The position numbers were made by a program, and so were the translations under genes. This document shows positions 1,652 to 59,737 of a DNA stretch of 64,000 bases, in pieces (the first letter of the stretch is position 1; every line of letters begins with the position of its first letter). This stretch comes from Vicinamibacteria bacterium (GTDB taxonomy: Bacteria > Acidobacteriota > Vicinamibacteria > Marinacidobacterales > Marinacidobacteraceae), in the NCBI GenBank assembly GCA_963668695.2, contig CAXXLQ010000004.1, positions 3,488,001-3,552,000 of the forward strand. The letters are read 5' to 3'. The notes below the pieces were generated by a model, which was given only the letters and a program-made list of their open reading frames with translations, was not told the DNA's origin and ran no database searches.

Positions 1652-1720
1652 AGGGAACGCCGGCCAGTTCTCCCGGTGGGGGCTTCACACCGGCATCGCG
1701 GCCCGCAGGGCCGCGGCACC
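1652..1720. repeat. REP-like hairpin family B copy (GGGAACGCCGG...CACCGGC) carrying a 20-nt cassette at 1664-1683
   Basis: Aligns by eye with 12905-12960, 21650-21800, 30607-30735, 40119-40162 and 52601-52630. Confidence 0.75.
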
Positions 1721-1854
1721 CGCACACCGCCGCCTGCCTCGTCATCGGTGATGGGTTGCGGCCCGGCGGGCGCGGCGCGCCAGCGGGCCAAGGCGGCGGC
1801 GTGTTTGTGGGGCGCCGCCGCGGTGTGGGCCTTACGCCCTGGCACCGGCTTATT

Positions 1855-2223
1855 TCAAACCAGTTTCAGTCCGGCGGTTGCGAAGCGACGAAAGTCGGCG
1901 AGATTCGCTGTCGCGAGGCGCGCCCCATCATGGATTGCTGCAGCCGCGATCAGGCAGTCGGAGAGTGAGCGGCGGCGACGGCCCGAGTCGTTGAAGAGAC
2001 GAGCGGCGATTGCCGCGTGTTCGAAAGTGAGGTCGCGATGGCCGTCCACGACTTGCAGAGCGAGTTCTGTCTCCGCCGGTTCGATCGGGCCGCACAAGAA
2101 TTCGGCCCAAGCGATGCTGCTTACCACCACTGGCTCGTCGGGATCTGCGGCCTCCAGAAATCGAGCCTCAGGCGATCCCTGGTCCATCATGCGGATCAGG
2201 AAACTTGTGTCCAAGTGGATCAT
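1855..2223 (-). CDS. vapC: PIN-domain toxin (VapC family)
   Basis: IHLDTSFLI, AWAEFL, SDCLIAAAA and LATANLADF PIN motifs; overlaps the upstream antitoxin. Confidence 0.92.
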   Translation of the reverse strand: MIHLDTSFLIRMMDQGSPEARFLEAADPDEPVVVSSIAWAEFLCGPIEPAETELALQVVDGHRDLTFEHAAIAARLFNDSGRRRRSLSDCLIAAAAIHDGARLATANLADFRRFATAGLKLV

Positions 2224-2504
2224 CGCGGTTCGTTGGAGAGTCGCCGAAAGGATGCGCTCCGAATCTCGCTCGCTTGGTGTTCCCAGCCGTCCAAATCCAC
2301 GCCTCGGGCGGCGACTGATTTCTGGAGTGCCCGGAGGGCCTGCAACCTCGCATCCGCCCGCGATGGTTGCCGCTCGGCTTCGCTACGGATCGCTCTTCGA
2401 AGCGCCTCGGACTTCGAGACGTTCCAGCGACGCGCCAACCCTTCCAGCGAGCGGACAGTGCCAACGTCGAGAGAATATGTGGACTTGATCGTCATGACGG
2501 CCAT
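2220..2504 (-). CDS. CopG/ribbon-helix-helix antitoxin (VapB-like)
   Basis: MAVMTIKSTYSLD...LARRWNVSKSEALRRAI RHH pattern; ATGA overlap with vapC; start at 2504 or 2495. Confidence 0.85.
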   Translation of the reverse strand: MAVMTIKSTYSLDVGTVRSLEGLARRWNVSKSEALRRAIRSEAERQPSRADARLQALRALQKSVAARGVDLDGWEHQASEIRSASFRRLSNEPR

Positions 2505-2523
2505 ACTCTCATTGTATGGCCGT
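2497..2523. promoter_or_regulatory. Inverted-repeat operator at antitoxin start
   Basis: acggccatac-N7-gtatggccgt perfect 10-bp inverted repeat; TA autoregulation is inferred. Confidence 0.6.
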
Positions 2524-2696
2524 ATCACGCGGCAAGACGAATCGTCGCGGGTCCGCGGCCACGCAGCCCTGTCTGCAGCCGATCCAGTTCGGCGGTGGTG
2601 AGCTCGGCCCGCATCGCGAAATTCGTGCACCCCAACTCTGGGATCTATGCGAGTGGCACTAGGTACTTCATCAACATTCCCTCCATGGGAGGGTTG

Positions 2697-11803: not shown

Positions 11804-12895
11804 ATGCGGCGCTGTGCCATCAGTTTCACAGCCGCCGTTCTTCTCGGCTCCGCCGGATGCTGGACCTCCGGCGAGGACCCGAAAGAGTTGACCGCGGTCT
11901 CCTGGGGCGGTTTCTACACGGAGGCCAGCGTGCATGCCTACTACCGGCCCTTCGAGGAGAACACCGGGTTCGCGGTTCGGCAGGTGCGGTACAGCGGCGG
12001 CCTCGAGGAAATCCGGGAACAGGTGGCTTCCGGCGACGTGGAGTGGGATGTCGTGGACCTGGAGATCTTTGACGCAGTGCGCGGCTGCGAGGAAGGCCTC
12101 CTGGAGCCGATCCCATGGGTCATGCTGGCGCCGGCTCCGGACGGCACCCTTGCCGAGGACGACTTCCTGGAGGACACGACAACGGAGTGCGGCATCGGCG
12201 CCTCGGTGTACTCGATGGTCTACGCCTACGACGAGAATCGCTTCCCCGACGCAGAACCCACCACGATCGCGGACTTCTTCGACTATGAGCGTTTCCCGGG
12301 GCCCCGCGGAATGCGGCGTTCTCCGCAGGTCAATCTGGAGTTTGCGCTGATGGCCGACGGCGTGCCGGCGGCGGAGGTCTACGCATCGCTCCGCACGCCA
12401 GCCGGGCGGGAGAGAGCGTTTCGCAAACTGGACAGCCTGCGGGACCACATCCGGTGGTGGGTAGAGCCGCGTGTTGCGGTCGAGATGCTCGCCGATGGCG
12501 ATGTCGCCATGACGACCTCATTCAACGGCCGGATGTTTCATGCCCGGTTCGTGGACGGACACCCGTTCCGGATCGTCTGGCACGGGCAGGTCCTCCAGAT
12601 TGGCCAGTTGGGGATCGTTCGCGGAACGCCGAGGCTCTCGCAGGCGTTCCGCTTCATCCGCCTCGCCTCTTCCACCGAGGCCATTGCGACGCTCGCCCGC
12701 CGTACGGCTTACAGTCCTTCGCGGGAATCCGCATTTCCGTTGGTCACGACCCACGTGGAGTCGGGAGTGGACCTGCGGCCTCACCTGCCAACCGCGCCGG
12801 AACACCTGGAGCACGCCCTCCGCAGCGACTGGCGCTGGTGGAGCGACAACCTCGACGAGATGGACGAGCTCTTCCGCGCCTGGCTCGACAGGTAG
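11804..12895 (+). CDS. ABC transporter substrate-binding lipoprotein (PotD/polyamine-like), orphan
   Basis: Lipobox SAGC; VSWGG, VEWDVVD, DFFDYERFPGPRGMR; no permease or ATPase adjacent. Confidence 0.88.
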   Translation: MRRCAISFTAAVLLGSAGCWTSGEDPKELTAVSWGGFYTEASVHAYYRPFEENTGFAVRQVRYSGGLEEIREQVASGDVEWDVVDLEIFDAVRGCEEGLLEPIPWVMLAPAPDGTLAEDDFLEDTTTECGIGASVYSMVYAYDENRFPDAEPTTIADFFDYERFPGPRGMRRSPQVNLEFALMADGVPAAEVYASLRTPAGRERAFRKLDSLRDHIRWWVEPRVAVEMLADGDVAMTTSFNGRMFHARFVDGHPFRIVWHGQVLQIGQLGIVRGTPRLSQAFRFIRLASSTEAIATLARRTAYSPSRESAFPLVTTHVESGVDLRPHLPTAPEHLEHALRSDWRWWSDNLDEMDELFRAWLDR

Positions 12896-12904
12896 CGAGA
12901 CCCC

Positions 12905-12960
12905 GGGAACGCCGGTGTTCACACCGGCATCGCGGCCGGCAGGGCCGCGAAACGCGCGGG
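12905..12960. repeat. REP-like family B copy (cassette-free)
   Basis: gggaacgccggtgttcacaccggcatcgcggcc...ccgcgaaacgcg. Confidence 0.75.
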
Positions 12961-20795: not shown

Positions 20796-21162
20796 CACGA
20801 ACGTCCTGGTCCGGCTGATCGTGCGGGATGACCCAGATCAGGTGGCCCGCGCCGAGGCGTTCGTGGAGTCCGGGGCCTGGGTTTCCCTGATCGTGCTGGC
20901 TGAGGCCGTATGGGTGCTGCAGTCCGCGTATGAGCTGGACCGCGAGCGCGTCGCCACCGTCGTGAGCATGCTTCTGGACCACGACCGGCTCACGCTCCAG
21001 GACGAAGATGTGGTCCGCCGAGCCCACGAGACCTTCGGGGGCGAGCGCTCGGCCGGATTCTCCGACTGCCTCATTGTCGAAACCGCCCGCAAGGCAGGGC
21101 ACCGTCCCGTCGGGACGTTCGACCGGCGGCTGGCACGGGTGGAGGGAACCGAGCGGCTGTAA
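20782..21162 (+). CDS. vapC: VapC PIN toxin
   Basis: ALDTNVLVR, LAEAVWVL, FSDCLI, TFDR. Confidence 0.92.
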   Translation: MRALDTNVLVRLIVRDDPDQVARAEAFVESGAWVSLIVLAEAVWVLQSAYELDRERVATVVSMLLDHDRLTLQDEDVVRRAHETFGGERSAGFSDCLIVETARKAGHRPVGTFDRRLARVEGTERL

Positions 21163-21253
21163 CCCGCTTCGGATCGCTCCCGCGACCCAGCTTCCCCGAT
21201 CGGGCGATGGTCAGCATTGCGCCCATGGGCTGTCGCGCGCGAGGCCGATGCGC

Positions 21254-21535
21254 CTACCGGGACCAATCTCTCATCCCGAACCTCCGCTCGTGCCATCGCT
21301 GGTACTGGCGCTCGTTCTTCCATTTGATCGTGAGCTTCACGTCTTCCCCCCGGATCTTGCGGTCGAACCAACACGTCACCAGGTCACGCGCCATGAACTC
21401 CGCATCTTGCTTGGTGTTTTGGCCGTCGCCAGTGCAGGTGACGTGTGTGTGGCCGTCGGGTGCATTGAGGAACTCGATCTCCCATCCCTCGTAATCCTCC
21501 CTGGTCCAGGTTGCTACTGCGCGATATCGCTTCAT
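21254..21535 (-). CDS. Hypothetical protein, HicB-N-like fold possible
   Basis: YRAVATWTRED..WEIEF...AEFMARDLV pattern; aaggag RBS upstream; no HicA seen. Confidence 0.5.
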   Translation of the reverse strand: MKRYRAVATWTREDYEGWEIEFLNAPDGHTHVTCTGDGQNTKQDAEFMARDLVTCWFDRKIRGEDVKLTIKWKNERQYQRWHERRFGMRDWSR

Positions 21536-21649
21536 GGCCCTGCTCCTTTCTTCCAATCCTGTGCAAGAGGCGGAGGATAGGGAGGTAATGGGACATTTCC
21601 TGTCATGCGTGGTTCCGTCCTTGAAGGAGGGCGGCGATGCGTCGCCCGC

Positions 21650-21800
21650 GGCGCTGCGCGCCGCGATGCCGGCCGGAGGTCGCGTTCCCTGGCCTGTGCA
21701 TCGCGCGAGGCCCAGCAGCGACACGCGTTTCGCGGCCCTGGGGGCCGCGGTGCCGGTCTGAAGGCCCCCACCGGGAGAACTGGCCGGCGTTCCCTGCCCT
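21650..21800. repeat. REP-like family B cluster with cassette at 21764-21783
   Basis: Empty version at 52601-52630 (gccggtctgaag-a-ccggcgttccc). Confidence 0.75.
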
Positions 21801-21850
21801 ACGCGCCATGGTGCCGGCCGGCGGCCGGCGGTCCCGGCCCAGCCGGGCCG

Positions 21851-22570
21851 TCAGTCCGTGGGGAGTTCGTCCTTCAGGGCGGCGTTCGCGATGCGGGTGA
21901 CACGGCGGATCAGGTAGAAGGTGGCGAGGAGTCCGAGGATGGTGAGCGCCGCGGACCAGGAAAAGCTCTCCGTAGCGAGGGTTGCGCCGGCCCTGGCCGC
22001 GGCCCCCAAATGGGCAAAGAAGCAGGCTCCCACCGGGGCCGCGAGGAAGGAACCAAGCGCGTAGTTCCGGAAGCGCACCGGGGTCGTCGCCCAGCCGAAG
22101 TTCTGGAACGCGAAGGGGAAAAGCGGCGAGAGCCGGGTGAGGCACACCGTGCGGACACCGGCGTCGCCGAGCGCGGCAAGGATCCGGCTCACCGACCGGA
22201 ACCGTCCGAGCCATGGCGCAAGCCACCGCCGGAGAAACAGCCTCCCGACCGCGAAGGCGGCGAGCGAACCGAGGAACGTCCCCAGGGTGGCATAGACCAT
22301 CCCCGGCCCCAGGCCGAACAAGAATCCGGCGGCGAGACAAAAGACCGTGTTCGGCAGCGCGAACGCGACCAGGAGCACGTGCACGAGAACCAGCGCCACC
22401 GGACTCGTCGGGATCCACTCCGGCGGCAGGAACGGCTCGTCTCCTGCCCCGCCGAAGAGCAGCGGCAGCAGCAGGACGTTCAGAACGAACAGGATCCAGA
22501 GCGCCGGCTGCCAGAAGCGCCGAACCAGCCCTCGGACCCCCTTCTCCCCGGAATCGGGGTCAGAGGTCAA
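21851..22570 (-). CDS. TVP38/TMEM64 (VTT/DedA-like) membrane protein
   Basis: AAGFLFG...GSLAAFAVGR; RLSPLFPF; TTG start overlapping the mmsA stop. Confidence 0.85.
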   Translation of the reverse strand: MTSDPDSGEKGVRGLVRRFWQPALWILFVLNVLLLPLLFGGAGDEPFLPPEWIPTSPVALVLVHVLLVAFALPNTVFCLAAGFLFGLGPGMVYATLGTFLGSLAAFAVGRLFLRRWLAPWLGRFRSVSRILAALGDAGVRTVCLTRLSPLFPFAFQNFGWATTPVRFRNYALGSFLAAPVGACFFAHLGAAARAGATLATESFSWSAALTILGLLATFYLIRRVTRIANAALKDELPTD

Positions 22571-24078: not shown

Positions 24079-26421
24079 ATGCTGTGTTTCCCTGTGAATT
24101 CCGGGGGCTTCAGGCGTTTTCGTCTGGCGCTCCTGCCCGGCTGCCTGCTCCTCGCGCCCTTGGCTGCGGGAACCCCCACCCCGCCGAATGAAGGAGCGGT
24201 CCAGGCGCTCGCCGAGGGCATGGAAGGCCCCGTGGTGGACGGGCTGGTGACCGACGAACAGTGGTCTTCGGTCGAACCGTTTACCGACTTCATCCAGCAG
24301 GAACCGGACAACGGGGCCCCGGCCACCGAGCGGACGGAAGTCCGCCTGCTCCTCTCCGAGACCACGCTCTACGTGGGAATCGTCGCCTTCGACAGCGAGC
24401 CCGAACGGGTGCTCGTCTCGGAGAGCCGCCGGGACGGCGACCTCAACGAATCCGACTCCGTCCAGATCGTCCTCGACACCTTCAACGACAGCCAGAACGC
24501 CTTCCTCTTCGGCACGAATCCGGAGGGGATCGAGTACGACGGCCAGATCGCCGGCGAGGGGGCAATCGGCGGTTACAACCCCACCCCCGGCCGGCGGGGC
24601 TCGCAGCGCGGCGGCATCACCGGATTCAACGCCAACTGGGACGGCGACTGGACGGTGCGCTCGCAGCGGAGCGACCGCGGCTGGGAGAGCGAGTTCGCGA
24701 TTCCGCTCCGGACGCTCCGCTACCAGCCCGGGCGGAACCAGACCTGGGGCCTGAACGTGATGCGGAACATCCGCCGCAAGAACGAGCAAGCGTTCCTCGC
24801 CCCCATTCCCCGCGGCTACAACATCTACCGGGTCTCACTGGCGCAGAAGGTCACCGGGCTCAACCTGCCGTCACGGCGGGACATCAAGGTCACCCCGTTC
24901 GCGCTCGGCGAAGCGAGCCGGAACCCGCTCGCGGTCCGCTCCGAGAACCGCGAAACCGAAGGCCTCGACATCGGGCTCGACGTGAAGTGGGGCGTCACCC
25001 CGAACCTCACCGTGGATCTGACCGCGAACACCGACTTCGCCCAGGTGGAGGCGGACGACCAGCAGGTCAACCTGACCCGCTTCCCGCTCTTCTTCCCCGA
25101 AAAGCGGCCCTTCTTCCTCGAAAACGCCTCCACCTTCCAGTTCGGGGCGCCCCAGGAGGTGGACCTCTTCTTCAGCCGCCGGATCGGCCTGAACGCCGGA
25201 CAGCCGGTGGGGATCGTCGGCGGCGCCCGGCTCTCCGGGAAGGTGGGTTCGACGAACATCGGCCTCATGAACATGCAGACCGACGCGGCCTTCAATCGCG
25301 AGACCGGCGCCCTGGCGCTCGCGGCCAACAACGTCATGGTGGCGCGGGTCCAGCGCGAGTTCGGACGGTCCAACATCGGCGGCATCCTGGTCAACCGGCA
25401 GGCCACCGGCGAGTGGGCGGAGCAGGGCGACCACAACCGTGCCTTCGGCGCCGACGCGGCGATCCAGATCGGGGAGCGCGCCCGGTTCTTCACCTTCCTG
25501 GCCAAGACCGCTTCCGCGAACGGGGAGACGGACGGCAGCGCCGGCCGAACGATGGCGGGCAGGGTCTTCCTCAACTATGCCCATCGGGTCCATCAGGGCC
25601 ACATCGGCTTCACCCAGGTGGGAGAGGATTTCAATCCCGAGGTCGGTTTCGTTCCGCGCCGCGGTTTCCGCAAGTACCAGGCGCGCTACTTCTTCGACTG
25701 GCAGCCCACCCAGATCTCCGCCCTTTCCTGGGTTCGCCGCTTTTCGCCGCACGTGACCTGGAACGCCTACTACGGTTTCGACGGCGAGGTCGAGTCGGGA
25801 CGCGGCCACTGGCATCCAATCGAGTTCCAGCCGAATGTGGGGGGCCGCTTCGGGCTGTTCATCGATCGCCACCGGGACCGGCCGCTTCGCGATTTCACCG
25901 TGTACTCCGGGGTGGACGGGAACCGGGTGATGATCCCGCCGGGGCTCTACAACTGGACGCAGGTGAGCGTGAACTGGATCGGGAATGCCAGCGCCCGGCT
26001 CTACCCGACGATCTACTGCCGCACCGGGAGCTTCTACGACGGCACCCGCCGGGGCTGCAACGGCAGCATCAATGGGCGCATCGGGGCCACCTTCCAGGCG
26101 AGCGTCGGTTTTAATCGGGACGTCGTGGAACTGCCGGGAGGCAACTTCACGAGTGACCTGATCCCGATCCGGGTGAACTACTCGTTCACCCCGCTGCGCC
26201 GGCTGGAAGCGCTGATCCAGTACAACAGCCAGACCGCCTCGGTCTCCTCAAACATCCGGCTGGTCATGCTCAACCGGAGCGGAACCGGACTCTTCCTCGT
26301 CTACAACGACCTGCGCAACACCGCCAACTTCGACCGCTTCGACGACGAGACCGGGTTCCTGGTGCCCAACGTGCTGGGCCGGTCGCTCATCATCAAGTAC
26401 ACGCGCCTCTTCGACTTCTAG
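24079..26421 (+). CDS. DUF5916 / CBM9-like outer-membrane protein
   Basis: WESEFAIPLRTLRY; NTDFAQVEADDQQVNLTRFPLFFPEKRPFFLEN; C-terminal Phe. Confidence 0.9.
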   Translation: MLCFPVNSGGFRRFRLALLPGCLLLAPLAAGTPTPPNEGAVQALAEGMEGPVVDGLVTDEQWSSVEPFTDFIQQEPDNGAPATERTEVRLLLSETTLYVGIVAFDSEPERVLVSESRRDGDLNESDSVQIVLDTFNDSQNAFLFGTNPEGIEYDGQIAGEGAIGGYNPTPGRRGSQRGGITGFNANWDGDWTVRSQRSDRGWESEFAIPLRTLRYQPGRNQTWGLNVMRNIRRKNEQAFLAPIPRGYNIYRVSLAQKVTGLNLPSRRDIKVTPFALGEASRNPLAVRSENRETEGLDIGLDVKWGVTPNLTVDLTANTDFAQVEADDQQVNLTRFPLFFPEKRPFFLENASTFQFGAPQEVDLFFSRRIGLNAGQPVGIVGGARLSGKVGSTNIGLMNMQTDAAFNRETGALALAANNVMVARVQREFGRSNIGGILVNRQATGEWAEQGDHNRAFGADAAIQIGERARFFTFLAKTASANGETDGSAGRTMAGRVFLNYAHRVHQGHIGFTQVGEDFNPEVGFVPRRGFRKYQARYFFDWQPTQISALSWVRRFSPHVTWNAYYGFDGEVESGRGHWHPIEFQPNVGGRFGLFIDRHRDRPLRDFTVYSGVDGNRVMIPPGLYNWTQVSVNWIGNASARLYPTIYCRTGSFYDGTRRGCNGSINGRIGATFQASVGFNRDVVELPGGNFTSDLIPIRVNYSFTPLRRLEALIQYNSQTASVSSNIRLVMLNRSGTGLFLVYNDLRNTANFDRFDDETGFLVPNVLGRSLIIKYTRLFDF

Positions 26422-26658
26422 GCGCCTGTGGTGGAACCCGGGTGAGCGCCGAGAGCGGCCAGTTCTCCCGGTGGGGGCGAGGCGCCTGCCTGACAAGGCG
26501 CGTGAGGAAGGAATACCGAGTGTATTCCGACCGAAACGCAACGCGGAGCGCCGCAAAGCGCCAGTTCTCCCGGTGGGGGGGCGGTTCAGGCGGGATGGAT
26601 CGCCGCTCGAGCCCCCACCGGGAGAACTGGGCCGCTTGGGTTTCACCACCGGCTGCTA
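26419..26658. mobile_element. MITE family A copy with three 20-nt cassettes, at the DUF5916 stop codon
   Basis: Same internal sequence as the 19981 copy; cassettes at 26459, 26561 and 26611. Confidence 0.85.
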
Positions 26659-29193: not shown

Positions 29194-29249
29194 ATCTCTC
29201 GCAAGAGCGCGGATATTAGCAGCCCGTAGACAGGGTGAGCCGGCATTAG

Positions 29250-29882
29250 ACCGCGGATCCACTCCGGCTGACCGTTCCACTGGGCGTTGCGATCCGGTCG
29301 GAATACGCTCGGGATACCTCCCGAATCGCGCCTTGTCAGCCGGGCCCCCACCGGGAGAACTGGCCCCACCGGGAGAACTGGGCCTCCCCACTCTCGATGC
29401 TCGCCTCACTCTGCCCACGGGCCGTTAGCAGCCTGTGGTGAAACCCAGCCGGCCCAGTTCTCCCGGTGGGGGCTCGGCCGGCGATCCATCCCGGCCTGAA
29501 AAGTTCTCCCGGTGGGGGCTCGGCCGGCGATCCATCCCGGCTGAACCGCCGGTATCGTTGCGTTTCGGTCGAAACACCCGGGCCAGTTCTCCCGGTGGGG
29601 GCTCCTCCCTCACGCGCCTTGTCAGCCGGGCGTCTCGCCCCCACCGGGAGAACTGGCCGGCCTCGGCGCTCACCCGGGTTCCACCACAGGCTGTTCACCG
29701 CGTCGCTTCGCGCCGCTCATCGTTGCGTTTCGGTCGAAATACACCCGGGCCAGTTCTCCCGGTGGGGGCTCCTCCCTCACACGCCTTGTCAGCCGGACCC
29801 CCACCGGGAGAACTGGGCCTCGCCCCCACCGGGAGAACTGGCCAACCTCGGCGCTCGCTCGGGTTCCACCACGGGCCGTTAG
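29250..29882. mobile_element. Cluster of about three MITE family A copies/fragments with 9 cassettes
   Basis: Repeated cgccttgtcagcc and cgtttcggtcg cores; GCAGCCTGTGG end at ~29428. Confidence 0.8.
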
Positions 29883-29977
29883 CAGTCTCCCGCCCGCCCG
29901 GAACAGACCGCTTCCGCCTCCGGGGATCCCGTTCGCTCCGGGGCCAGGCTCTATGGTATTCTTACGGGTCGCGCGCC

Positions 29978-30606: not shown

Positions 30607-30735
30607 GGGAACGCCGGCCTTCAGGCCCCCACCGGGAGAACCGGCCGGCAGCGCGGCCCGCCGGCAGCGCGGCCCGCCGGCAAGGAACGCCGGTGTTCAC
30701 ACCGGCATCGCGGCCGCAGGCCGCGAAACGCGCAC
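30607..30735. repeat. REP-like family B pair, cassette at 30625-30644
   Basis: gggaacgccgg...ccggca and ggaacgccggtgttcacaccggcatcg units. Confidence 0.75.
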
Positions 30736-34837: not shown

Positions 34838-35700
34838 TCAATGGAACGCCGGTATCGCAATCGCGACCATACCGGCCGCAAAAACGATGATCCCATTGCG
34901 GATGGCGGCAAAGCTCACTGCAAGTGCGTTGGTCATGATCAGGGCGATTCGCTGATTCTGCTCTAGCAGCCTGTGGATAAAGTGGCGTGAGTGCCGAGGC
35001 TGGCCAGTTCTCCCGGTGGGGGCGAGGCGCCCGGCTGACAAGGCGCGCGAGGGAGGAATACCGGGTGTATTTCGACCGAAGCGCAACGATGAGGGCCGCG
35101 AAGCGGCACGTTTCAGCCGGGATGCATCGCCCGCCGAACGCCGCGTGACTTTGTCCACAGGCTGCTAGGTAGAAGAGTCTTGTCGCGCGCAGTCCGACAT
35201 CGTCAAGATGCAGATGATCCGGGGGCGCCGGCGCCCAGACCTTGCGAACATCGAGGACTTCGAAGGCGAAGAAGCCGCCTGAGATGAAATAGATCCACCC
35301 AAGGAGAATTGCGGCATATCCGATTTGGCCCGACAATGCCGACGCTGGCCTCGCGACATGAGACGCCGGTTCCGAAAGGAGGCCAAACAGCGCGGTGGCG
35401 ATGGCCGCGGCCAGCGAAATCGCCACCAAATTCGTCCGCGCCTTGGCTTCTATGGAGTTCCTACGCTCCCGCTCTCGATCCTCGAACTGCTCCAGAACCG
35501 GATCCGTGAGGCGCGAAGCAAGCTCGTGCCGGGTGGCAACAAGGGCGTGCATGTCGTCGTCACGAACCTGCGTTTCCTCCCTGATTTCCCGCCGTAGCGA
35601 GTAGTGGAGGAGGATGGCTTGGGCCGTTACGGTGTGGAAGGTCCGGGCAAACCAGCGCCCGAGGCTTCGAAGCCGTTTCGCGATTCCTCCTCGCTCAGCC
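34838..35700 (-). pseudogene. Three-TM hypothetical membrane protein interrupted by a MITE (start uncertain)
   Basis: Removing 34966-35165 and one TA restores ...RLFYLEQNQRIALIMTN... Confidence 0.7.
34964..35167. mobile_element. MITE family A, clean 200-bp copy with TA duplication
   Basis: TA-GCAGCCTGTGGA...TCCACAGGCTGC-TA; cassette at 35004. Confidence 0.92.
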
Positions 35701-36300: not shown

Positions 36301-36392
36301 TCTCTTCGTCCGGCCAGACGGCGAGCCGCCCGACCGAAAACCTGAAGCCGCGTGTGGGGCCGGGCACCATACCACCGGGCCCGGCGAAGGGG

Positions 36393-36742
36393 AACAGCCC
36401 GTGGTGGAACCCACGTGAGCGCCGAGGCCGGGAAGGCGCCCGGCTGACAAGGCGCGTGAGGGAGGAGCCCCCACCGGGAGAACTGGCCCGGGTGTATGCC
36501 GACCGAAACGCAACGATGAGCGGCGCGCAGCGACGCGGTGAACAGCCGGTGGTGGAACCCACGTGAGCACCGAGGCCGGGAAGGCGCCCGGCTGACAAGG
36601 CGCGTGAGGGAGGAGCCCCCACCGGGAGAACTGGCCCGGGTGTATGCCGACCGAAACGCAACGATGAGCGGCGCGACGCGACGCGGTTCAGCCGGGATGG
36701 ATCGCCGGCCGAACGCCGCGTGGGTTTCATCACCGGCTGTTA
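36393..36742. mobile_element. MITE family A tandem copy upstream of pgk, two cassettes
   Basis: Two units; cassettes at 36467 and 36615; ends ...GGCTGT-TA. Confidence 0.85.
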
Positions 36743-36757
36743 CGGTTTTGCCCCGCC

Positions 36758-38723: not shown

Positions 38724-38796
38724 GCGGCGAACCAGGCGTCAGGCCGCCGCGCCGTATCGGAACGAGAGCCGCCCCTGAACCGGAATATCAACGCCA

Positions 38797-39291: not shown

Positions 39292-39377
39292 GCCGAAGTG
39301 GTGGAATGGTAGACACGTGCGCTTGAGGGGCGTATGGGAGTGATCCCGTGGGGGTTCGAGTCCCCCCTTCGGCACCA
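39292..39377 (+). tRNA. tRNA-Leu(GAG)
   Basis: GCCGAAGTGGTGGAATGGTAGACAC...TTGAGGG...long variable arm...GTTCGAGTCC...GGCACCA. Confidence 0.96.
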
Positions 39378-39382
39378 GGTCG

Positions 39383-40162
39383 GGCGGCCCAGAAACGGGG
39401 TGCGCAATGAACGCGCGGATGGTGGAACAGCAACGAGGTTTGTAGACGCACCCCGTTTCTGGGCCGCTCGGCGCTGCGCGCCGAAAATCGGAAGTGCGGC
39501 GAGAGCCGCACGGAGACCCCGGAGCAGGAGGGGTTGGGGTCGGGGAACCCGACTCCCAGTCGCTCCTGGCTCGGGAATCGGAACTTCCTCGCGCGCCTGG
39601 GGCGCGCTACGGCAAGTTCCGATTCCTGGTTTCTTTTTGTGAAAGGGGGGCGAGCCCCCCTTCCACACTTTCCCCCCGGTCACGCGGGCAGCGAACAAAG
39701 TTCGCTGCCATTGGTTTTCTCGTTCGGCGATAGCCAACCCGCTGGAAGGACGGCAGGCTAGGGAACGCCGGACCCTTCGGTGCCTCTCACACCGGAGGGC
39801 CCAGAAAACGAAGTCCGAAGGGTATAGACCTCCGGTCGGCACAGCGGCGCGCAGCGCCGCGGGCGGTTCATCGCTGATCCCTACAGAGCGCGCGGGAACG
39901 CCAGCCAGTTCTTCCGGGGTATCTCCCTGTCACGCTTTCCCCCCAGTCAGGCGGGCAGCGAACCAGAGGTTCGCCGCCATTGTTTTTCTGGCGCGCTCAG
40001 CTAAGCCCCACGCTCTCACGGCACGCAGGCTAGGGAACGCCGACCTCCAGGTCGGCACAGCGGCGCACAGCGCCGCGGGCGGTTCATCGCTGATCCCCAC
40101 AGAGGGCGCCGTAGGCACGGGAACGCCGGCCAGTCCTCCCGGTGGAGGCCTTCAGACCGGTA
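39383..40162. repeat. Hairpin-dense non-coding region with two degenerate tandem units
   Basis: Long IR ~39383-39467; 13-bp IR 39574/39614; hairpin 39641-39663; units ~39660-39915 and ~39925-40160 share blocks. Confidence 0.7.
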
Positions 40163-40227
40163 CCGCCTCTCGGAGACGGGCGAAACCGCAGAATTCAACT
40201 CACCCGGATCGCCGCCCGGCGAGACAC

Positions 40228-41433
40228 CTACAACAACAGCGACAGGAAGGTCCGGGCGGGAACGATCAGCGGCCGTCCCGGACGGGCGAAGGGATCCCGA
40301 TCCACGTACTCGGGGTCAAACTCAACCTGGAAAGCAAACGGGGCGGCGATCTGATCCTGAAAATGTTGCAGTGACGGGCTGAGCGGGGCCTCCCCCGACT
40401 CCACCTCCACGAGGAACCAGGGTTCCCCGTCCCGGACGACCACGAAGTCCACTTCGCGCTTCTCCTTGTCCCGCAGATAGCCGAGCTCGAAATCCCCGAG
40501 GCCCAGATCGGTCCAACCCTCGATGGCCTTCAGCAGGTGGCAGGCGACAAGAGTCTCGGCCCGCGCGCCCGGATCGCCCAGGGACGACCAATCACGCAGA
40601 TACCACTTCGGTTCCTTCCTGAGCGACCGAGTGACATTCCGGTACCAAGGCCTGACCAGGAAACCGAGATGCAGGTCGCAAAACGTTGCGGTCCAGCGCC
40701 GCACGGTGTCCTCCGAGACCCGAATCTGCCGGGCGAGGTTTCCGAAGACGAGCTGCTGTCCGGATCGGTCTGCCAGTAGCCGCGCCATCAACTCAAGCTG
40801 ATCGAGCTGCTGAACTCGGGTGAGGTCCCGAACCTCTTCTCGAACGAGCTGGCGGTGGCGGAGCGCCTGCCAGCGCCGGGCAAAGCGTGGATCGCGCTTC
40901 AGGAAAGGCTCCGGGTAACCGCCGTAGCGCCAGAGGGAACTCCAGGCGGACGCTTGGAGACGCCGGGGCCGTCGGACGATCCGGCCGGCTTCGGGAAGTT
41001 TCTGGGTCAGCGCCTCGGCGACGGAGAACGGATGCATTCGGTAGAAGAAATACCGGCCCATAAGGCTGTCGCCGCCCCGGCGGTAGATATCGAGGCGGCT
41101 GCTTTCCGTGACCACGATCCGCACTTCATCGCCGTACGCATCGAAGAGTCCCTTCAGGAACTGCCGCCAGAGCGGGAATTTGTGGAGTTCGTCCAGCAGG
41201 ACGGTCGGCCGGGCGGCGCGCAGCCGACCCAGACCGAGCCGCTCGGCGAGCGCGCCGGGACCGGCCAGGATGAGTTCCCGGTCATCGAGGTTGTCCCAGT
41301 TGACGTAGGCGTCCGAATGAACGCGGCCGGTGGTCGTCTTTCCCACCTGGCGCGGACCGCCGAGGAAAGCCATCTGCCGGTTGCTCTTCAGGTGCTCCGC
41401 GAGCAGGGCGTCGTAGATTCGAGGGACCGGCAC
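40228..41433 (-). CDS. AAA_14 ATPase with DUF4143 domain
   Basis: GPRQVGKTT Walker A; LLDELH; GGYPE; KEPKWYLRD; EVDFVV...LVEV. Confidence 0.92.
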   Translation of the reverse strand: MPVPRIYDALLAEHLKSNRQMAFLGGPRQVGKTTTGRVHSDAYVNWDNLDDRELILAGPGALAERLGLGRLRAARPTVLLDELHKFPLWRQFLKGLFDAYGDEVRIVVTESSRLDIYRRGGDSLMGRYFFYRMHPFSVAEALTQKLPEAGRIVRRPRRLQASAWSSLWRYGGYPEPFLKRDPRFARRWQALRHRQLVREEVRDLTRVQQLDQLELMARLLADRSGQQLVFGNLARQIRVSEDTVRRWTATFCDLHLGFLVRPWYRNVTRSLRKEPKWYLRDWSSLGDPGARAETLVACHLLKAIEGWTDLGLGDFELGYLRDKEKREVDFVVVRDGEPWFLVEVESGEAPLSPSLQHFQDQIAAPFAFQVEFDPEYVDRDPFARPGRPLIVPARTFLSLLL

Positions 41434-52518: not shown

Positions 52519-52629
52519 ACAGCACAATATACAGCATGACCGCACGCCGCACCATCCGACCGAGCGGCGCACCGCACCCCTCGCTGGCCTTCGGCCAGCG
52601 GTGCCGGTCTGAAGACCGGCGTTCCCTGC

Positions 52630-53513: not shown

Positions 53514-55037
53514 CTACGTCCGTGAAAGCCGCGGGTCTTCTCCGAAGGGCATGCCCCCTCCCCGGAACACCTGCTTCGGATCGAACTCCCGCTTCCACCG
53601 GATGCCCGTCTCCAGCGCCTCTCCGTAGTGTTCCTCCCATTCCCTGGGCCCCTAGCAGCCTGTGGACAAAGTCACGCGGCGTTCGAGCGGCGATGCATCC
53701 CGCCTGAACCGCGCCGCTTCGCTTCGCTCATCGTTGCGCTTCGGTCGAAATACACTCGGGCCAGTTCTCCCGGTGGGGGCTCCTCCCTCGCGCGCCTTGT
53801 CAGCCGGGCGCCTCGCCGCTCTCGGCGCTCACGCCACTTTATCCACAGGCTGCTAACCGACGCTGCCTGACAGATAGCTCTTTCCTCCGAGTTCCACGAG
53901 CGTTCTGTCGACTTCCTTCAGCCGGCGCGCCAGGTCTCTTGCCCGCTCGAATCGGCTCAGCACCGCAAGGATCGAATACGAAATCATGCGTTCGCCGCTT
54001 GGATGCATGAAGAGCGGGGCGTCGATCGCCCCCGCCCGGATCGGGTAGAAGCCGATCCAACTGAAGGGTGCGCGCGGCATCCCGCCCGGGTCCAGCCAAG
54101 GCTGGACGGTCAATGCTCGGAGGGTATCCCAGGGCAGGAACCAGTCCCGCCACGGGTGATGGTTCCGCCGCAGGAATCCCCATTTCGGCCACATTGCGGC
54201 GCGTCCGACTTCGGCCGTGTCGTGCACGGCTGCGATCTCGTCGTATCCCAACCCTTCGAGGGCCCTTTCTTCGTCGTGGACCTCGTCGTACTCGGCGCCG
54301 CCGCTCAAGATGATCTCCTGTTCGTGGATCCGGGTCTGGGCCCGCAGATGATCGAAGCGGCCTTCCTCGACGAGCCCTTCGAAATCACTGGCGAACCGGT
54401 CGAGATCCCGGTAGCGGAGTTCGTACAACCGGATCCGGGCGCCGGCCTTCCGCAGCCGGATCCACGCGTCGGTGATGATGCCGAAGTGCCCCTGGCCACC
54501 CCTCACGGCGTCAAATAGCTCCGCGTTCCGGGTGCGCGAACACCGGTACCGCTCACCGGTTCCGGTCACCACCTCGAGCTGCTCGACCTGGGCAATCTGC
54601 ACCCCGTACCGGTGCGAGGTGGTTCCGAGTCCCCCGGCAGACAGCGTTCCACCAACGGTCGCCTCGGCGACGTCCACGAGCACCCGGGGCAGCCGGCCGG
54701 TGCCCTCCAGCAGATCCACTATCCCGCCCCAGGGCGCTCCGCCCTGAGCGCGGATCAGGTCGCGTCCCACCGGTTCGATTCGCTTGAGCCGCATCATGTC
54801 GATGACCAGGCCACCGTCCGAGAGGCTTTGTCCACCCTGGGAGTGGCCTCCTCCGCGAACCGTCACCGGGACCTGGTCGCCGGCCGCCCGGCGGACGATG
54901 TTCGATACCTCCTCGACGCGCCCGGGAGTCGCCACCGCTCGGGGCATCCTCCGGATCATTCCTCCGAAGTCGAACGACCGTGCTTCCCGGTCTTCCGGGT
55001 TCGTGCTGACCCCGGGGAACTGACCCAGTCCGATCAT
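53514..55037 (-). pseudogene. Cytokinin-dehydrogenase-like FAD oxidoreductase, C-terminus cut off by a MITE
   Basis: RGGGHSQGGQ, TVGGTLSAGG, GGQGHFGIIT, HPW; the tail EWEEHYG...KREFDPK resumes beyond the MITE. Confidence 0.8.
53653..53855. mobile_element. MITE family A, 199-bp copy with TA duplication
   Basis: TA-GCAGCCTGTGGA...TCCACAGGCTGC-TA; cassette at 53761. Confidence 0.92.
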
Positions 55038-56651: not shown

Positions 56652-57722
56652 GTGACGCTGCGGATCGAGATCTGGGGGCCGCCGCTCGGGCCCGTGACCG
56701 GCGGGAACATCTACGACCGGATGCTCGCCCAGGGACTTCGGGCGCGGGGCCACGACGTGACGATTCGCGAGTTCGGCGGCGGGAGCGGGAACGCCCGGAG
56801 CGGGAACGCCCAAGATCCGTCCCGACCGCCCGACGTGGTGCTGCAGGACGAACTGCTGCACCCGACGTTCCTCCGCAAGAACCTGTCCTGGAAGAGGCCC
56901 CGGCCGCGCATCGTCGCGCTTGTCCACCACCTGCAGAGTTCCGAACCCGAGCGGGGCGAAGCGGAACTTGGGCGGCTCCGGCAGGAGGAGCGCGCGTACC
57001 TGGAGACCGTAGACGGCGTCCTTTCCCCGAGCCGGGCCAGCGTGGAAGCGGCCCGCCAGCTCTCCGGAAGACCGCTTCCGGCCGCGGTTGCAGCTCCGGG
57101 ACGGGACCGGTTCGCGGGAGCGGCGCTGCCTCCGCTCCCCGGCCCGAGCGAGATCTCGGCCCGCGCCTCCGGGCCGCTCACGGCGGCCTTCGTCGCGAAC
57201 CTCATCCCCCGGAAACGGCTGCTCGAAGTGCTGGAAGCAGTGGCCACCGTTCCGGAGTGGTCGCTCTCGGTCGCCGGACGTGAAGATGTCGACCCGGGCT
57301 ATGCCGACCGGGCGCGCCGGCGAGCCGCCGCTTCCGACCTCCGCGGGCGGGTGACCTTCGAGGGAGTGCTCGGACCCGAGGCGTTGGCCGCGCTCCTCCG
57401 GAAGAGTTGCCTGCTGGTAGTCCCCTCGACCCACGAGGGGTTCGGGATCGTCTATCTGGAGGGGTTCGCGTTCGGCCTCCCGGCACTCGCCGCAGCCTCC
57501 GGCGGCGCCCCGGAAGTCGTGAGCGAAGGCGAAACCGGCTGGCTGATTCGCTCCCCGGACGGCAAGGGCGCCTCGGAGCGCGTCGCCGAATGTCTACGTC
57601 TGCTCGCCGCAGATCGCGGCCGCCTGGCCACCATGGGGCTCCGCGCCGCCGCACGACACCGTAGGCATCCCACCTGGGGGCAGAGTTCGGCCACGGCGGA
57701 AGGGGTCCTCGCGCCTCGATAG
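56652..57722 (+). CDS. Glycosyltransferase family 4
   Basis: TGGNIYD; LVHH; NLIPRK; PSTHEGFGIVYLEG. Confidence 0.9.
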   Translation: MTLRIEIWGPPLGPVTGGNIYDRMLAQGLRARGHDVTIREFGGGSGNARSGNAQDPSRPPDVVLQDELLHPTFLRKNLSWKRPRPRIVALVHHLQSSEPERGEAELGRLRQEERAYLETVDGVLSPSRASVEAARQLSGRPLPAAVAAPGRDRFAGAALPPLPGPSEISARASGPLTAAFVANLIPRKRLLEVLEAVATVPEWSLSVAGREDVDPGYADRARRRAAASDLRGRVTFEGVLGPEALAALLRKSCLLVVPSTHEGFGIVYLEGFAFGLPALAAASGGAPEVVSEGETGWLIRSPDGKGASERVAECLRLLAADRGRLATMGLRAAARHRRHPTWGQSSATAEGVLAPR

Positions 57723-57759
57723 GCCGGTCTCGGCGCAGGACCGGAACCGAAATCCCGCC

Positions 57760-58316
57760 CCAAGCTGGGCGACGGCCGCTCCCGCCGACAAGTAGTCTCC
57801 GGGAGACGACCGGAGGGTCATGATCTCGCCGGCGAGCTGGCTGACGATCAGTTCTCGGGCGGAACGTCGGGCCTCGATCTCAAGGAGCGCGGCAAGGGCC
57901 GTATCGAGCACCGAGCGAAGTCCGCCGCCGCCGCCAGCCTGCCGGATTTCGGTTTCGAGCAACTCCACCCGTTCGCGCAGGGCCTCCGTCTCGCGTTCGA
58001 GGCCCGGCGCCGTCTGCCGGGCGATGGCATCCCCGGCCTCGGCGCGGTCCCCAGGAACGACCAGGACTTCCACGAGGTGCCCGGGCTCGGCTGCCATCAC
58101 CTCGTAGCGATCGCCGGGCTCGATCAGAACCCCTTCCAGCCTGAGGCCGAGGGTGATGCTGCCGAAGAAGGCCCAAACCGCCAAGGCCAGCAGGAGCACG
58201 CCGATTCCCGCCAGCAGGAGGCGCTCGTGCGGCGCCGTTACCCGGAGCAGGTGGTCGAGCTGCTGGCGCTGATCCTTGCTGGCCAGAGCCTTTTCAAGGA
58301 ACTCTTTCCTGAACAC
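57760..58316 (-). pseudogene. NHLP/HlyD-type bacteriocin secretion protein, C-terminally truncated
   Basis: MFRKE..A....QLDHLLRVT, one TM and a lipoyl-like hairpin; the ORF then runs into the GT4 gene antisense. Confidence 0.65.
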
Positions 58317-58370
58317 GGGGTGGTAATGCTCGGACCCGCCGGGGCGGGCCGGCAGAATACCAAACCGGAA

Positions 58371-59255
58371 TTACAGTTCGTGACGTAGTAGCAGCGGGAC
58401 ACCGCTCGTCTTCCCGCAACAAATCAGCCAGCCGAAGAAAACGGCCGCGAGCCCCCACCATCCGGTGGGGAAACCGGCCAGCCCGAGGATGCCCAGGGCG
58501 GCGGCAAGGAGAACGGCCGGCCGGCTGACAAAACGACGAAGTCCCTGCAGACGGGCAACCATGCGACGCGAACCGGCGCCCTGCGGATCCAGCCGGCCGC
58601 TCGCCAGCAGGTAGTCGCGAGCAAAGCCGGCCAGGAACGGGATTCCGAGCGCGAGCGTCGAAGGGAGCGCCCACTCGGGTTCGATACCCGGCACCAGGCA
58701 CACGGCGAGCAGGCCCATCTGGAATCCGGCGAGGCGGCGCCGGAACGAGCTCGGGGGTAGGTCGGCCAGTTGGCCGCCGAGCCGCCGCTCGACGAAGAGC
58801 GCCGCGCCGAAGAGATACCGGCCGAAGCCGGCGGCCAAATACCAGAGCGGCAACACTCCCGCGATGAGAACGGCGATCCCGCTCGCCGCCGCCAGACCGA
58901 GGGCGTCGGTTTCTGCGTCGAGCCGGGCGCCGAAAGCGCTCTCCGTACCCATGCGCCGGGCGACGACCCCGTCGAGCCCATCGGCGAGCGCGGCCAGACC
59001 GTACGCCAGCGCCGGAGCCCAGCCGAGCGCGTCACCGGCCTCCCGGACGAAAGCGAGCGACACCGCCATAAAGCCGCCGAGTCCGGCGAATACGACCAGC
59101 CGGGCGAGGGTGATCGCGTTCGCGGCCCCCAGCCGGCCCGGCGCCGGAGCGCCGTCCCGCCCGAACCGGACGGCGCGCACTACCAGAACGAACAGCGCCA
59201 GACCGATCAGGCCGGCGCTGGCGGCCAGCCCGCCCGGAAGGTCGGCCAGGGTCAA
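58371..59255 (-). CDS. CDP-alcohol phosphatidyltransferase family protein
   Basis: ANAITLAR; DGLDGVVAR...FGARLDAETD. Confidence 0.92.
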   Translation of the reverse strand: MTLADLPGGLAASAGLIGLALFVLVVRAVRFGRDGAPAPGRLGAANAITLARLVVFAGLGGFMAVSLAFVREAGDALGWAPALAYGLAALADGLDGVVARRMGTESAFGARLDAETDALGLAAASGIAVLIAGVLPLWYLAAGFGRYLFGAALFVERRLGGQLADLPPSSFRRRLAGFQMGLLAVCLVPGIEPEWALPSTLALGIPFLAGFARDYLLASGRLDPQGAGSRRMVARLQGLRRFVSRPAVLLAAALGILGLAGFPTGWWGLAAVFFGWLICCGKTSGVPLLLRHEL

Positions 59256-59737
59256 AACCGGTACCCGAGGCTCAGCTTGAAGCGGCGCTGTTTGGGACTA
59301 TGGGTCAGGGAGTCGTACGCCAGCTCGTAGTTCACGAGCGGCGGCGCGCTGCCGGCGAGGTTGAGCGCCGAGCCGGTCACGGTGAACAGCCTGTGGTGAA
59401 ACCCGCGTGAGCGCCGAGGCCGGTGAGGCCCAGTTCTCCCGGTGGGGCCAGTTCTCCCGGTGGGGGCCCGGCTGACAAGGCGCGTGAGGGAGGAGCCCCC
59501 ACCGGGAGAACTGGCCCGGGTGTATTTCGACCGAAACGCAACGCAGAACGCAGCGAAGCGGAGTGGTTCAGCCGGGATGGATCGCCGGTCGAACGCCGCG
59601 TGGGTTTTGCCACAGGCTGTTAACCCACTATCGGGCCAGCGGTACTGCTGGCCGGCCGCGGCCAAAGGCGCCGCCACCAACGCGAACAGAGCCACCTTGG
59701 CCCAGAACACCAACCGATTCGTACATCCTGACAGCAT
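59252..59737 (-). pseudogene. TonB-dependent-receptor-like remnant (signal peptide + last ~50 aa) with in-frame MITE
   Basis: Signal peptide; NL...PPLVN..LAYDSLTHSP..RRFKLSLGYRF barrel-type C-terminus. Confidence 0.55.
59384..59622. mobile_element. MITE family A copy with three cassettes
   Basis: ACAGCCTGTGG...CCACAGGCTGT-TA; cassettes at 59430, 59448 and 59495. Confidence 0.9.

Follow-up and report, generated by a model that had tools for sequence, protein, structure and literature searches.

A very small dispersed repeat that inserts recurrently in the genomes of one family of Acidobacteriota

Introduction

We analyzed a stretch of 64,000 nucleotides (nt), referred to below as the window, from the genome of a Vicinamibacteria bacterium of the family Marinacidobacteraceae (assembly GCA_963668695.2, contig CAXXLQ010000004.1, positions 3,488,001 to 3,552,000 of the forward strand). 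The subject of this report is a short word, the cassette, that is present in many copies in this DNA and throughout the genome. The cassette is a real, lineage-specific and recurrently inserting dispersed repeat of very small size, and is among the smallest repeats that behave as mobile. A fixed unit of 18 nt inserts behind a G-rich end in many unrelated sequences, and a single-copy gene has acquired it; most copies owe their number to amplification of the repeats that host them. The cassette is polymorphic between co-existing strains and is confined to one bacterial family.

Results

A conserved unit of 18 nucleotides

The 20-mer CCAGTTCTCCCGGTGGGGGC matches the window 23 times at up to three mismatches (16 matches are exact, five have one mismatch and two have two), where 100 shuffles gave an expectation of 0.01 and never reached 23. 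An earlier note on this DNA had reported about 23 mostly exact copies; its count stands, as do its positions, apart from 29363 and 29502, which are properly 29362 and 29500. The source genome (G000) comprises 4.1 Mb in 4 contigs, with 67% GC, and is near-complete (91.7% by marker genes). It contains 1,601 copies of the 20-mer with two mismatches or fewer, 962 of them exact. The true unit is the 18-mer CCAGTTCTCCCGGTGGGG, which is usually followed by GC and so gives the appearance of a 20-mer. This unit, which the earlier note missed, occurs 1,288 times exactly and 1,631 times at up to two mismatches, for about 29 kb of cassette sequence in all. It is the most frequent of all 18-mers in G000, the next independent word (from the backbone of a host repeat) having 444 copies, and the reversed word, used as a control, has no match in G000 at up to two mismatches.

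Inspection of base frequencies over 1,600 copies shows that positions 1 to 18 are fully conserved and that the GC at positions 19 and 20 is weaker. On the cassette strand 1,476 of the 1,600 copies have G at position -2 and 1,594 have G or C at -1, and the information content is at background directly beyond positions -2 and +20. A short G-rich stretch therefore always precedes the cassette, and the abutment of its ACTGG end on host CC, remarked on in the window, holds genome-wide. The cassette also forms tandems with a period of exactly 18 nt; besides 140 doubles and 2 triples, G000 has a single 4-mer and a single 5-mer, with two to five units laid down in register. From this spacing it follows that the unit is 18 nt and that the GC belongs to the junction. 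The two head-to-tail doubles described earlier in the window (29344/29362 and 59430/59448) are real, but the spacing in these doubles, too, is 18 nt and not 20.

Several searches were made for some larger or structured entity to which the word might belong. The earlier note had allowed that it might be the footprint of a larger known element, such as the solo end of an insertion sequence (IS). Cassette half-sites lie nearly all within cassettes (left, 1,346 of 1,365; right, 1,348 of 1,429), so that they are almost never found alone. The spectrum of distances between cassette pairs, taken to 6 kb, has no peak above about 370 bp and none of IS size, and a search for longer elements bearing the ends of MITE-A, the principal host repeat described below, found no recurrent length. 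As had been claimed, the word has no inverted termini, and its flanks show replacement with no target-site duplication. Neither strand folds better than shuffled sequence, whether as RNA (z-scores of +1.08 and +0.47) or as DNA (-0.19 to +0.82). An origin from tRNA, or an analogy with a primer-binding site, was rejected, since the longest word common to the cassette and any of 57 tRNAs is 7 nt. At the gathering threshold Rfam matches only two tRNAs in the window, and a permissive scan of 29200-30800 returned one meaningless miRNA match (E = 0.63). A phage origin was likewise discarded, there being no exact 20-mer in viral contigs. The argument that cassettes are younger than their hosts fails, cassette divergence (about 1.4% per position) being similar to that of the median column of the host alignment (2.6%).

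Insertion into two kinds of host repeat

The main host is a miniature inverted-repeat transposable element (MITE), here named MITE-A. To count it, we removed the cassettes from G000 and aligned a cassette-less copy to the cleaned genome with blast. There are about 650 copies (810 blast pieces, with a coverage of 620-660 over most of the 192-nt reference). The element, whose ends are inverted, is predicted to form a single long hairpin (-124 kcal/mol for the 185-nt consensus). About three quarters of the cassette sites in G000 (1,133 of 1,480) lie in MITE-A, at reference positions 41(+), 48(+), 79(-), 125(+) and 159(-), plus a few minor ones. The 347 sites outside mapped MITE-A include 155 in three families of hairpins that resemble repetitive extragenic palindromic (REP) sequences, and many in truncated pieces of MITE-A; about 130 further junction types remain beyond these hosts.

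Each MITE-A site has one canonical empty and one canonical filled allele. At site 41 the 20-mer takes the place of a single base, which may be T, C or G. At site 48 an empty GC corresponds to the 18-mer plus GT, or to two 18-mers plus GC. Site 79 reads ATA when empty and GC, reverse 18-mer and C when filled; site 125 reads GC, AC and others when empty and the 18-mer plus GG when filled; and at site 159 AC gives way to GC plus the reverse 18-mer. Taken over all hosts, there are 146 junction classes among the 1,480 sites; 90 are singletons, and the four largest (307, 291, 185 and 176) together hold 959 sites. An empty counterpart exists elsewhere in G000 for 68 of the 146 classes. Over these 68, the net change in length is +18 in 31 classes, +19 in 17, +17 in 9 and some other value in 11. 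One or two bases are overwritten in 48 of the 68, and overall the number is 0-3, with more in a few classes; the letters most often lost are T (15 classes), GT (12), GC (6), TC (5) and TG (3). As for the left flank, its end is CCGG in 40 classes, CGGC in 22 and CTGG in 11. A G-rich left flank of 2-4 nt and a small loss of target sequence are features that match microhomology repair.

These comparisons bear out three proposals of the earlier note: that the cassette is a discrete unit entering unrelated hosts (five MITE-A sites, REP-like families, some 130 other junction types and, in relatives, a single-copy gene), that 0-3 host bases are replaced, and that some copies then spread passively with the MITE, which the junction classes make plain. 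They also reveal how selective the process is. Among 343 full-length MITE-A copies we found only 13 insertions of at least 6 nt other than cassettes, and at least 5 of the 13 are decayed cassettes. The insertion process thus uses the cassette word and essentially no other.

A cassette in frame within single-copy lhr

Comparison of G000 with G001, the genome of the closest species, revealed an indel in unique DNA at position 3405332 of the G000 contig C4. The open reading frame (ORF) at this place encodes the C-terminal part of the helicase Lhr, with DEAD_assoc, WH3_Lhr and WH4_Lhr domains, and the cassette site lies directly before WH4. When lhr orthologues from 26 genomes of the family were aligned, the cassette was present in G001, G004 and G008 and absent from G000 and 22 other genomes. 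Filled alleles read ...GGCGG-CCAGT(T/C)CTCCCGGTGGGG-GCCC(T/C)GCT..., where G000 and most other members of the genus have ...GGCGGCGCCCGCT or a close variant. The insertion is in frame, and the protein gains SSPGGG (SPPGGG in G008). No other cassette lies within 1.7 kb of it in the three filled genomes. The earlier statement that the cassette never occurs in native coding sequence therefore holds for the window and, as far as can be judged, for G000, but not for these relatives, in which coding DNA has been entered. For G000 itself, candidate cassettes inside genes were set aside: the ORFs that span copies with unique flanks translate to Arg/Pro/Gly-rich nonsense and are probably spurious GC-rich frames.

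A maximum-likelihood tree of the 3.4 kb lhr locus, built with cassettes removed, has the form (G009,(G004,(G008,(G000,G001)))), with every node at 100/100. G000, with its empty allele, nests within the filled clade, and the outgroups are all empty. The filled state is therefore derived, which rules out the possibility, raised in the earlier note, that the cassette is ancestral everywhere and has been lost by deletion. Judged from the alleles and the tree, there were at least two events at the same nucleotide of lhr: either one gain followed by a loss in G000 that restored the sequence exactly, or two or three independent gains. The filled alleles differ in cassette variant and in the base that follows GCCC, differences that are roughly as compatible with independent gains as with a single one. 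The target (GGC|GCCC-GCTGAC) resembles MITE-A site 48 (GGC|GCCCGGCTGAC). This likeness might mean that the target motif extends beyond the flank of 2-4 nt, or that copying was guided by a short homology with a filled MITE.

Distribution among related genomes

The exact 18-mer was found in 21 of the 41 related genomes searched: in all 16 of the genus (G000 included), in 5 of 9 from other genera of the family, and not in any of 16 genomes representing the order's two other families. Within the family, 5 genera share it unchanged. Positive genomes have between 1 and 1,288 copies and the others 0, with fragmented metagenome-assembled genomes (MAGs) probably under-counting. The four cassette-rich genomes (G000, G001, G004 and G008, with 525-1,288 copies) constitute a clade of the lhr tree. 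The word is unchanged even in genera that have only 72-76% identity to G000 in their lhr DNA, and since neutral descent would not preserve it, continual copying or selection is suggested. Public contigs with the word belong to marine Acidobacteriota MAGs labelled 'Candidatus Marinacidobacterium sp.', 'Vicinamibacteria bacterium' or 'Acidobacteria bacterium'.

In cassette-poor genomes the word is mostly in REP-like hairpins, and in the one genome with a single copy that copy sits inside a MITE. In loci of one Vicinamibacteria bacterium record the word is found at different positions of related repeats and also nests within its own copies; there are several such cases in that genome and none in G000.

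A few matches lie outside the Acidobacteriota. A contig of a Gammaproteobacteria MAG (L044) that carries the word is probably chimeric or misbinned, as only its first 669 bases match G000 (96% identity). These bases are followed by acidobacterial repeats, including the cassette, and the remaining ~5 kb, which is joined at the repeat, has no match. Three other non-acidobacterial single matches are within the range that we estimate for chance occurrences of an 18-mer in 596 Gb.

Occupancy and turnover

The 343 full-length MITE-A copies display 38 patterns of occupancy, and 101 of them are empty. Sites 41 and 48, although only 7 nt apart, are uncorrelated (r = -0.03), and the strongest association between any two sites is that of 79 and 159 (r = 0.39). 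The backbone behaves otherwise: haplotype r2 is 0.5-0.9 between positions 14-21, 66, 99 and 166-167, which span the whole element and the cassette sites, whereas occupancy at sites 41, 48 and 125 has an r2 near 0 with every backbone position. Pairs of MITEs with identical backbones share occupancy in 14 of 14 cases, and those with up to 4 differences in 33 of 49. Taken together, the linkage and pair data indicate that occupancy changes recurrently, within a few substitutions per MITE. Such change could come either from repeated insertion at the same place or from very short-patch exchange of alleles.

Within the backbone, polymorphisms at consensus positions 36/37 and 151/152, and at 14-21 and 166-172, co-vary (r2 0.4-0.9). 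These positions face each other in the predicted hairpin, the pairs being independent as modules, which suggests selection for the pairing of MITE-A as a single strand.

The assembly itself provides a comparison between strains. Contigs C1 (144,504 bp) and C3 (31,195 bp) are haplotigs of parts of C4, with identities of 98.1-99.9% in collinear blocks for C1 and 97.6-99.7% for C3, and they explain the 9.3% 'contamination' figure of G000. C3 corresponds to about 17,100-50,100 of the window. Over 147 kb of aligned sequence, with 0.57% mismatches, C1 and C3 share 63 of 71 cassette units with C4 and differ in 8. Where C4 has cassettes at window positions 36467 and 36615, C3 reads ATA, and where C4 has the filled GT-allele at 29797, C3 has an empty GC. 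C1 carries a cassette at one site 48 that is empty in C4, and elsewhere it has a single unit (GT) where C4 has a double (GC). In 193 kb aligned between G000 and G001, at 5.5% mismatches, the two have 13 units in common and differ in 11.

The region behind a tRNA gene (window 29119-29193) can be followed across species. G008 and G010 have no MITE there, G004 has a MITE with an empty site 48, and G000 and G001 have a MITE with a double cassette at site 48. In the orthologous loci (L135-L139; window 29194-29260) the MITE-free relatives read TAGCAGCC(C), which corresponds to the opening 8-9 bases of the MITE end; because of this, MITE-A may target sequence resembling its own terminus. A different MITE-A copy occupies the same spot in G009.

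Four public runs (X9, X11, X1 and X5, from four studies and labelled as sponge metagenomes) have contigs that contain the window region and its repeats. These are Logan contigs that end at repeats, and they neither show nor exclude filled and empty variants. Over window 21001-41000 they end at or near cassette/MITE clusters, where the depth of the word is 200-350 times the flanking depth. Repeats of this kind thus fragment short-read assemblies of the lineage.

Search for an enzyme or a master locus

The earlier note had proposed copying from a constant template by a reverse transcriptase (RT), in the manner of a retron or telomerase, and possibly a unique locus at which the word would lie in a longer structured RNA. 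Neither idea found support in G000. The genome has no match to PF00078 (reverse transcriptase), which control genomes do match, nor to PF01797 (Y1-HUH/RAYT), matched by 6 of 14 control genomes, nor to PF00239 (Resolvase, the serine recombinases) or PF09250 (Prim-Pol), for both of which the 14-genome control set gives matches. The TnpB zinc-ribbon family has one sub-threshold match. No master locus was found among the copies with unique flanks, which occupy ordinary REP-like or intergenic sites, and Rfam gave no match. A Ku homologue is present (C4:290988-291521, 151.6 bits), so that a bacterial end-joining pathway is likely to exist as well.

Two other candidates were considered and rejected. 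First, a Cas1 gene (C4:3284095-3284739; a weak Pfam score of 26 bits) adjoins a CRISPR array at C4:3280876-3283455 (L194:8876-11455), whose 28-nt repeat, GGTCCATCCCCGCGCGTGCGGGGGAAGC, is unrelated to the cassette. This is an ordinary Cas1 in a normal CRISPR locus, and the cassette is constant and dispersed. Second, the only IS110-family transposase gene (C4:482375-483622; L197:1477-2724) belongs to an element that has apparently simply inserted within a REP-like unit (…ccggaggtc | element | cggcgttccc…), as is the usual habit of this family. Two cassettes lie in neighbouring REP-like units, 360-480 nt upstream of the element.

At C4:3276749-3278100 (L194:4749-6100) there is also a long imperfect tandem array with a period of about 53 nt, built on CTACAGCGTGGAGTTCC. 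It lies in overlapping open frames of more than 500 amino acids and may represent a repeat protein or be non-coding.

Cassettes and hosts in the window

All 23 cassettes of the window lie, as had been noted, in MITE-A (19) or in REP-like hairpins (4, at 1664, 21764, 30625 and 40130). In the REP-like group, the plus-strand copy at 1664..1683 replaces the TG of a sister copy, gccgg-TG-ttcac (12895..12930, plus strand, listed as 12905), and the minus-strand copy at 21764..21783 replaces the A/T of gaag-A-ccggcg (52590..52625, minus strand, listed as 52601). A variant beginning CCGG at 30625..30644 (minus) is shared with G001, and the copy at 40130..40149 (plus) is diverged, with 2 mismatches. Two further filled/empty pairs that had been proposed are also correct, gga-ATA-ccggg (about 35055) with 36467 and gagagcggC-gaggcg (about 53815, minus strand) with 26459.

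The reference copy of MITE-A is full-length (34963..35170, plus strand, ends approximate), with terminal inverted repeats (TIRs) TAGCAGCCTGTGG.../...CCACAGGCTGCTA and a long hairpin, and contains a plus-strand cassette at site 41 (35004..35023). Another plus-strand copy, at about 26420..26658, has three cassettes: 26459..26478 (plus, site 41), 26561..26580 (plus, site 125, with a GG end) and 26611..26630 (minus, site 159). Behind the tRNA gene, at about 29216..29886, is a cluster of three or four MITE-A-type copies to which no single strand is assigned. It contains a minus-strand tandem double, 2 x 18 nt plus GC, at a MITE-A-like site 48 (29344..29381; the G001 orthologue is filled and that of G004 empty). 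Plus-strand cassettes follow at 29454..29473 (site 159) and at 29500..29519, the latter truncated at its 5' end where haplotig C3 has the full copy and 25 more bases. The remainder are at 29583..29602 (plus, site 79), 29637..29656 (minus, site 41), 29750..29769 (plus, site 79), 29797..29816 (minus, site 48, the GT-ending allele that is an empty GC in C3) and 29822..29841 (minus, site 41). Two partly overlapping tandem MITE-A copies on the plus strand (about 36392..36745) each carry a minus-strand cassette at site 79, 36467..36486 and 36615..36634, which are the two that read ATA in C3. The cassette at 53761..53780 (plus) fills site 79 of a MITE whose site 41 is empty. A plus-strand tandem double at site 48 (59430..59467) and a minus-strand cassette at site 79 (59495..59514) complete the set.

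Discussion

How a word of 18 nt may be inserted

The explanation that we tentatively prefer, giving it somewhat less than an even chance, is DNA-templated copying from existing cassettes during repair, combined with the spread of hosts and the exchange of alleles. On this model repair or restart at hairpin-prone repeats would be the setting. Where a repeat is stalled or broken, a 3' end of GG or GC would pair with the 2-4 nt found just ahead of nearly all cassettes, and the DNA of an existing copy would serve as template, with no reverse transcriptase needed. One unit would be copied, or, after slipping back, two to five in register, and synthesis would then return to the target. As the junctions show, the event falls directly after a G-rich end (...CCGG, ...CGGC, ...AGGC) and replaces 0-3 bases of the target, most often 1-2 and usually with a T among them, for a net gain of 18-19 nt. 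MITE-A and the REP-like hosts carry their cassettes along when they transpose, as the junction classes make plain. Finally, filled and empty alleles would be swapped among MITE copies, or a site would be hit again, either of which would yield nearly free combinations. Exchange of whole alleles between MITE copies, which the earlier note did not consider, may lie behind much of the site-to-site pattern. The in-register tandems, the 146 junction classes, the turnover in haplotigs and the derived state of lhr all speak for this model; so does the lack of a reverse transcriptase in G000, which favours a DNA template, and we also count the presence of Ku in its favour.

Repair that uses microhomology, or switches template, resembles the cassette in its 2-4 nt of microhomology, in the loss of a few bases, in copying sequence from elsewhere and in occasional doubles, and it requires no enzyme encoded by an element. 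Several observations weigh against it as the explanation. Such repair takes arbitrary nearby donors and leaves variable ends, whereas here one word with fixed ends, and no other, has been used well over 100 times; constant ends, unlike the ragged ones of template switching, point to something that recognizes the cassette. Words of the MITE backbone, with up to 444 copies, are never copied elsewhere as 20-nt pieces, so that copy number alone does not explain the specificity. At lhr the empty allele of G000 is letter-for-letter ancestral and no simple deletion from a filled allele yields it, and neither identical independent gains nor exact reversal would be expected from sloppy repair synthesis. 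Every strain-level difference is a swap between canonical alleles (ATA and cassette, or GC and cassette ending in GT), a pattern that gene conversion among copies of the MITE accounts for no less well than new insertion, and because short-read contigs break at the repeats there is no read-level proof of polymorphism. The model also nominates no enzyme. Three of these features, the constant ends, the exclusive use of one word and the repeated event at lhr, are better suited to a dedicated protein.

Such a protein, perhaps a nuclease-ligase, a recombinase or a domesticated transposase acting in trans, would recognize the ends of the cassette, write it to G-rich motifs and remove it exactly, as a kind of nano-transposon. 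We regard this main rival as possible, if rather unlikely. It would account for boundaries that are constant over 146 junction classes, for the near absence of other insertions in 343 MITE copies, and for an lhr nucleotide that was hit or reverted at least twice and whose empty allele is exactly ancestral. It would also suit an identical word in genera with 72-76% lhr identity to G000, and copy numbers of 0 to 1,288 among relatives, as if the activity were kept or lost by lineage. The difficulty is to find the protein: Y1-HUH, RVT_1, Resolvase and Prim-Pol families are absent from G000, TnpB is present only below threshold, and the lone IS110-type transposase is an ordinary insertion in a REP-like unit. 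The cassette offers no TIRs, hairpin or target duplication that could be used in known ways, and the number of overwritten bases varies from 0 to 3, with more in a few classes.

A related and unlikely proposal is that of a 'DNA stamp', independent of reverse transcription, in which some activity in this sponge-associated family of Acidobacteriota writes and exactly erases a fixed word of 18-20 nt at G-rich motifs. This would happen recurrently, at lhr and at the five MITE sites, and the machinery, not descent, would define the word, which is why it would be the same in different genera.

It could be argued that the cassette has no mobility and that a few ancient indel alleles were spread by host transposition and shuffled by recombination. 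We consider this very unlikely as a full account. The four largest junction classes do hold 959 of 1,480 sites; each site has one canonical filled and one empty allele, down to the overwritten letters; strain differences are all allele swaps, two adjacent tandem MITEs having changed together; and MITEs with identical backbones share occupancy (14 of 14). But unrelated hosts and 90 singleton junctions would be left unexplained, as would the cassette nested in a cassette in a relative, the different hot sites of another genus, and a backbone haplotype strongly linked across sites at which occupancy is unlinked. The in-frame cassette in single-copy lhr, with none nearby, refutes it as a complete explanation, and it survives only as the second step of the copying model that we prefer.

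More improbable still is the copying of a constant RNA, or of retron-like single-stranded DNA, by reverse transcription into breaks at hairpin DNA in the manner of telomerase. This picture matches the geometry: the word is constant, with a 3' end that is defined whatever comes next; tandems are in register with period 18; the preceding G-rich flank resembles a primer; many targets are in hairpin-forming repeats; and the sequence is conserved across genera. G000, though, offers neither an enzyme nor a template locus for it. PF00078, which controls match, and Prim-Pol have no match in this 4-contig genome, unique-flank copies look like ordinary insertions, the only copy of one genome lies in a MITE, Rfam is empty and similarity to tRNA does not exceed 7 nt. 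An artefact of library adapters, assembly or contamination has practically no chance of being correct, given the exact word in 21 of 41 genomes, fragmented short-read MAGs among them, the presence of the region, repeats included, in contigs from four public runs of four studies, and the empty reversed-word control.

Comparison with known repeats

The closest known kind appears to be the small dispersed repeats (SDRs) of Nostocaceae cyanobacteria, SDR1 to SDR8, reportedly described by Elhai and colleagues in 2008. They are said to measure 21-27 nt, with SDR1 and SDR4 nesting within themselves and SDR4-6 sharing a hairpin. In the portions of the literature consulted, SDRs are presented as repeats of about 20 nt, precisely inserted in other repeats and possibly mobile (PMC2884548, PMC4390886, PMC5861425, PMC3116915), sometimes in tandem and in various copy numbers (PMC2884548); SDR5 is inserted precisely at a fixed place in HIP1 (PMC4390886), and SDRs are reported there to be absent outside Nostocaceae (PMC5861425). 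Compared by these partial descriptions, the cassette is a new case of that rare kind. Common to both are a constant word of about 20 nt in hundreds of dispersed copies, precise insertion in other repeats or mini-transposons (for the cassette, five MITE-A sites and REP-like hosts, with empty sister copies), tandems in variable number (2-5 units for the cassette), and restriction to one coherent lineage with no known enzyme.

Self-nesting, reportedly a property of SDR1 and SDR4, is seen for the cassette in a relative only. The cassette is 18 nt long, below the size range said to hold for SDRs, and has no predicted hairpin of the sort that SDR4-6 are said to share. It occurs in Acidobacteriota of 67% GC, while SDRs, as far as these sources describe them, are cyanobacterial. 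It overwrites 0-3 bases, and for it a coding insertion and strain polymorphism are documented.

Other systems are less similar. REP sequences, and the REPIN-RAYT systems, are also short, extragenic, highly repeated and lineage-specific, often in clusters and inverted pairs, but the cassette is not palindromic, G000 has no PF01797 gene, and REP-like hairpins are hosts of the cassette. Like MITEs it is non-autonomous, of high copy number and nested in other repeats; unlike them it measures 18-20 nt (against 50-500 nt), lacks TIRs, replaces bases in place of duplicating a target site, and has no parent IS. Retron- or telomerase-like insertion differs in that G000 has no PF00078 match, template RNA locus or Rfam match. 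CRISPR adaptation places variable inserts at a leader-repeat junction, and the cassette is constant and dispersed. We found no description of the cassette word in the literature on small dispersed repeats or on MITEs of Acidobacteria and sponges, supplementary files not being covered.

To our knowledge, mobile-like repeats this small have been described only once, as the cyanobacterial SDRs, and the mechanism has been unexplained since 2008. The cassette is a second, unrelated case of a mobile-like tiny repeat, and it makes the spread of a 20-nt word testable. The material is favourable, with complete long-read genomes of several species that hold from 0 to about 1,300 copies, strain haplotigs in which gains and losses are caught under way, and single-copy lhr with a resolved tree. 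There are consequences for annotation as well, since the cassette breaks short-read assemblies at every copy and can add six residues (SSPGGG) to a protein.

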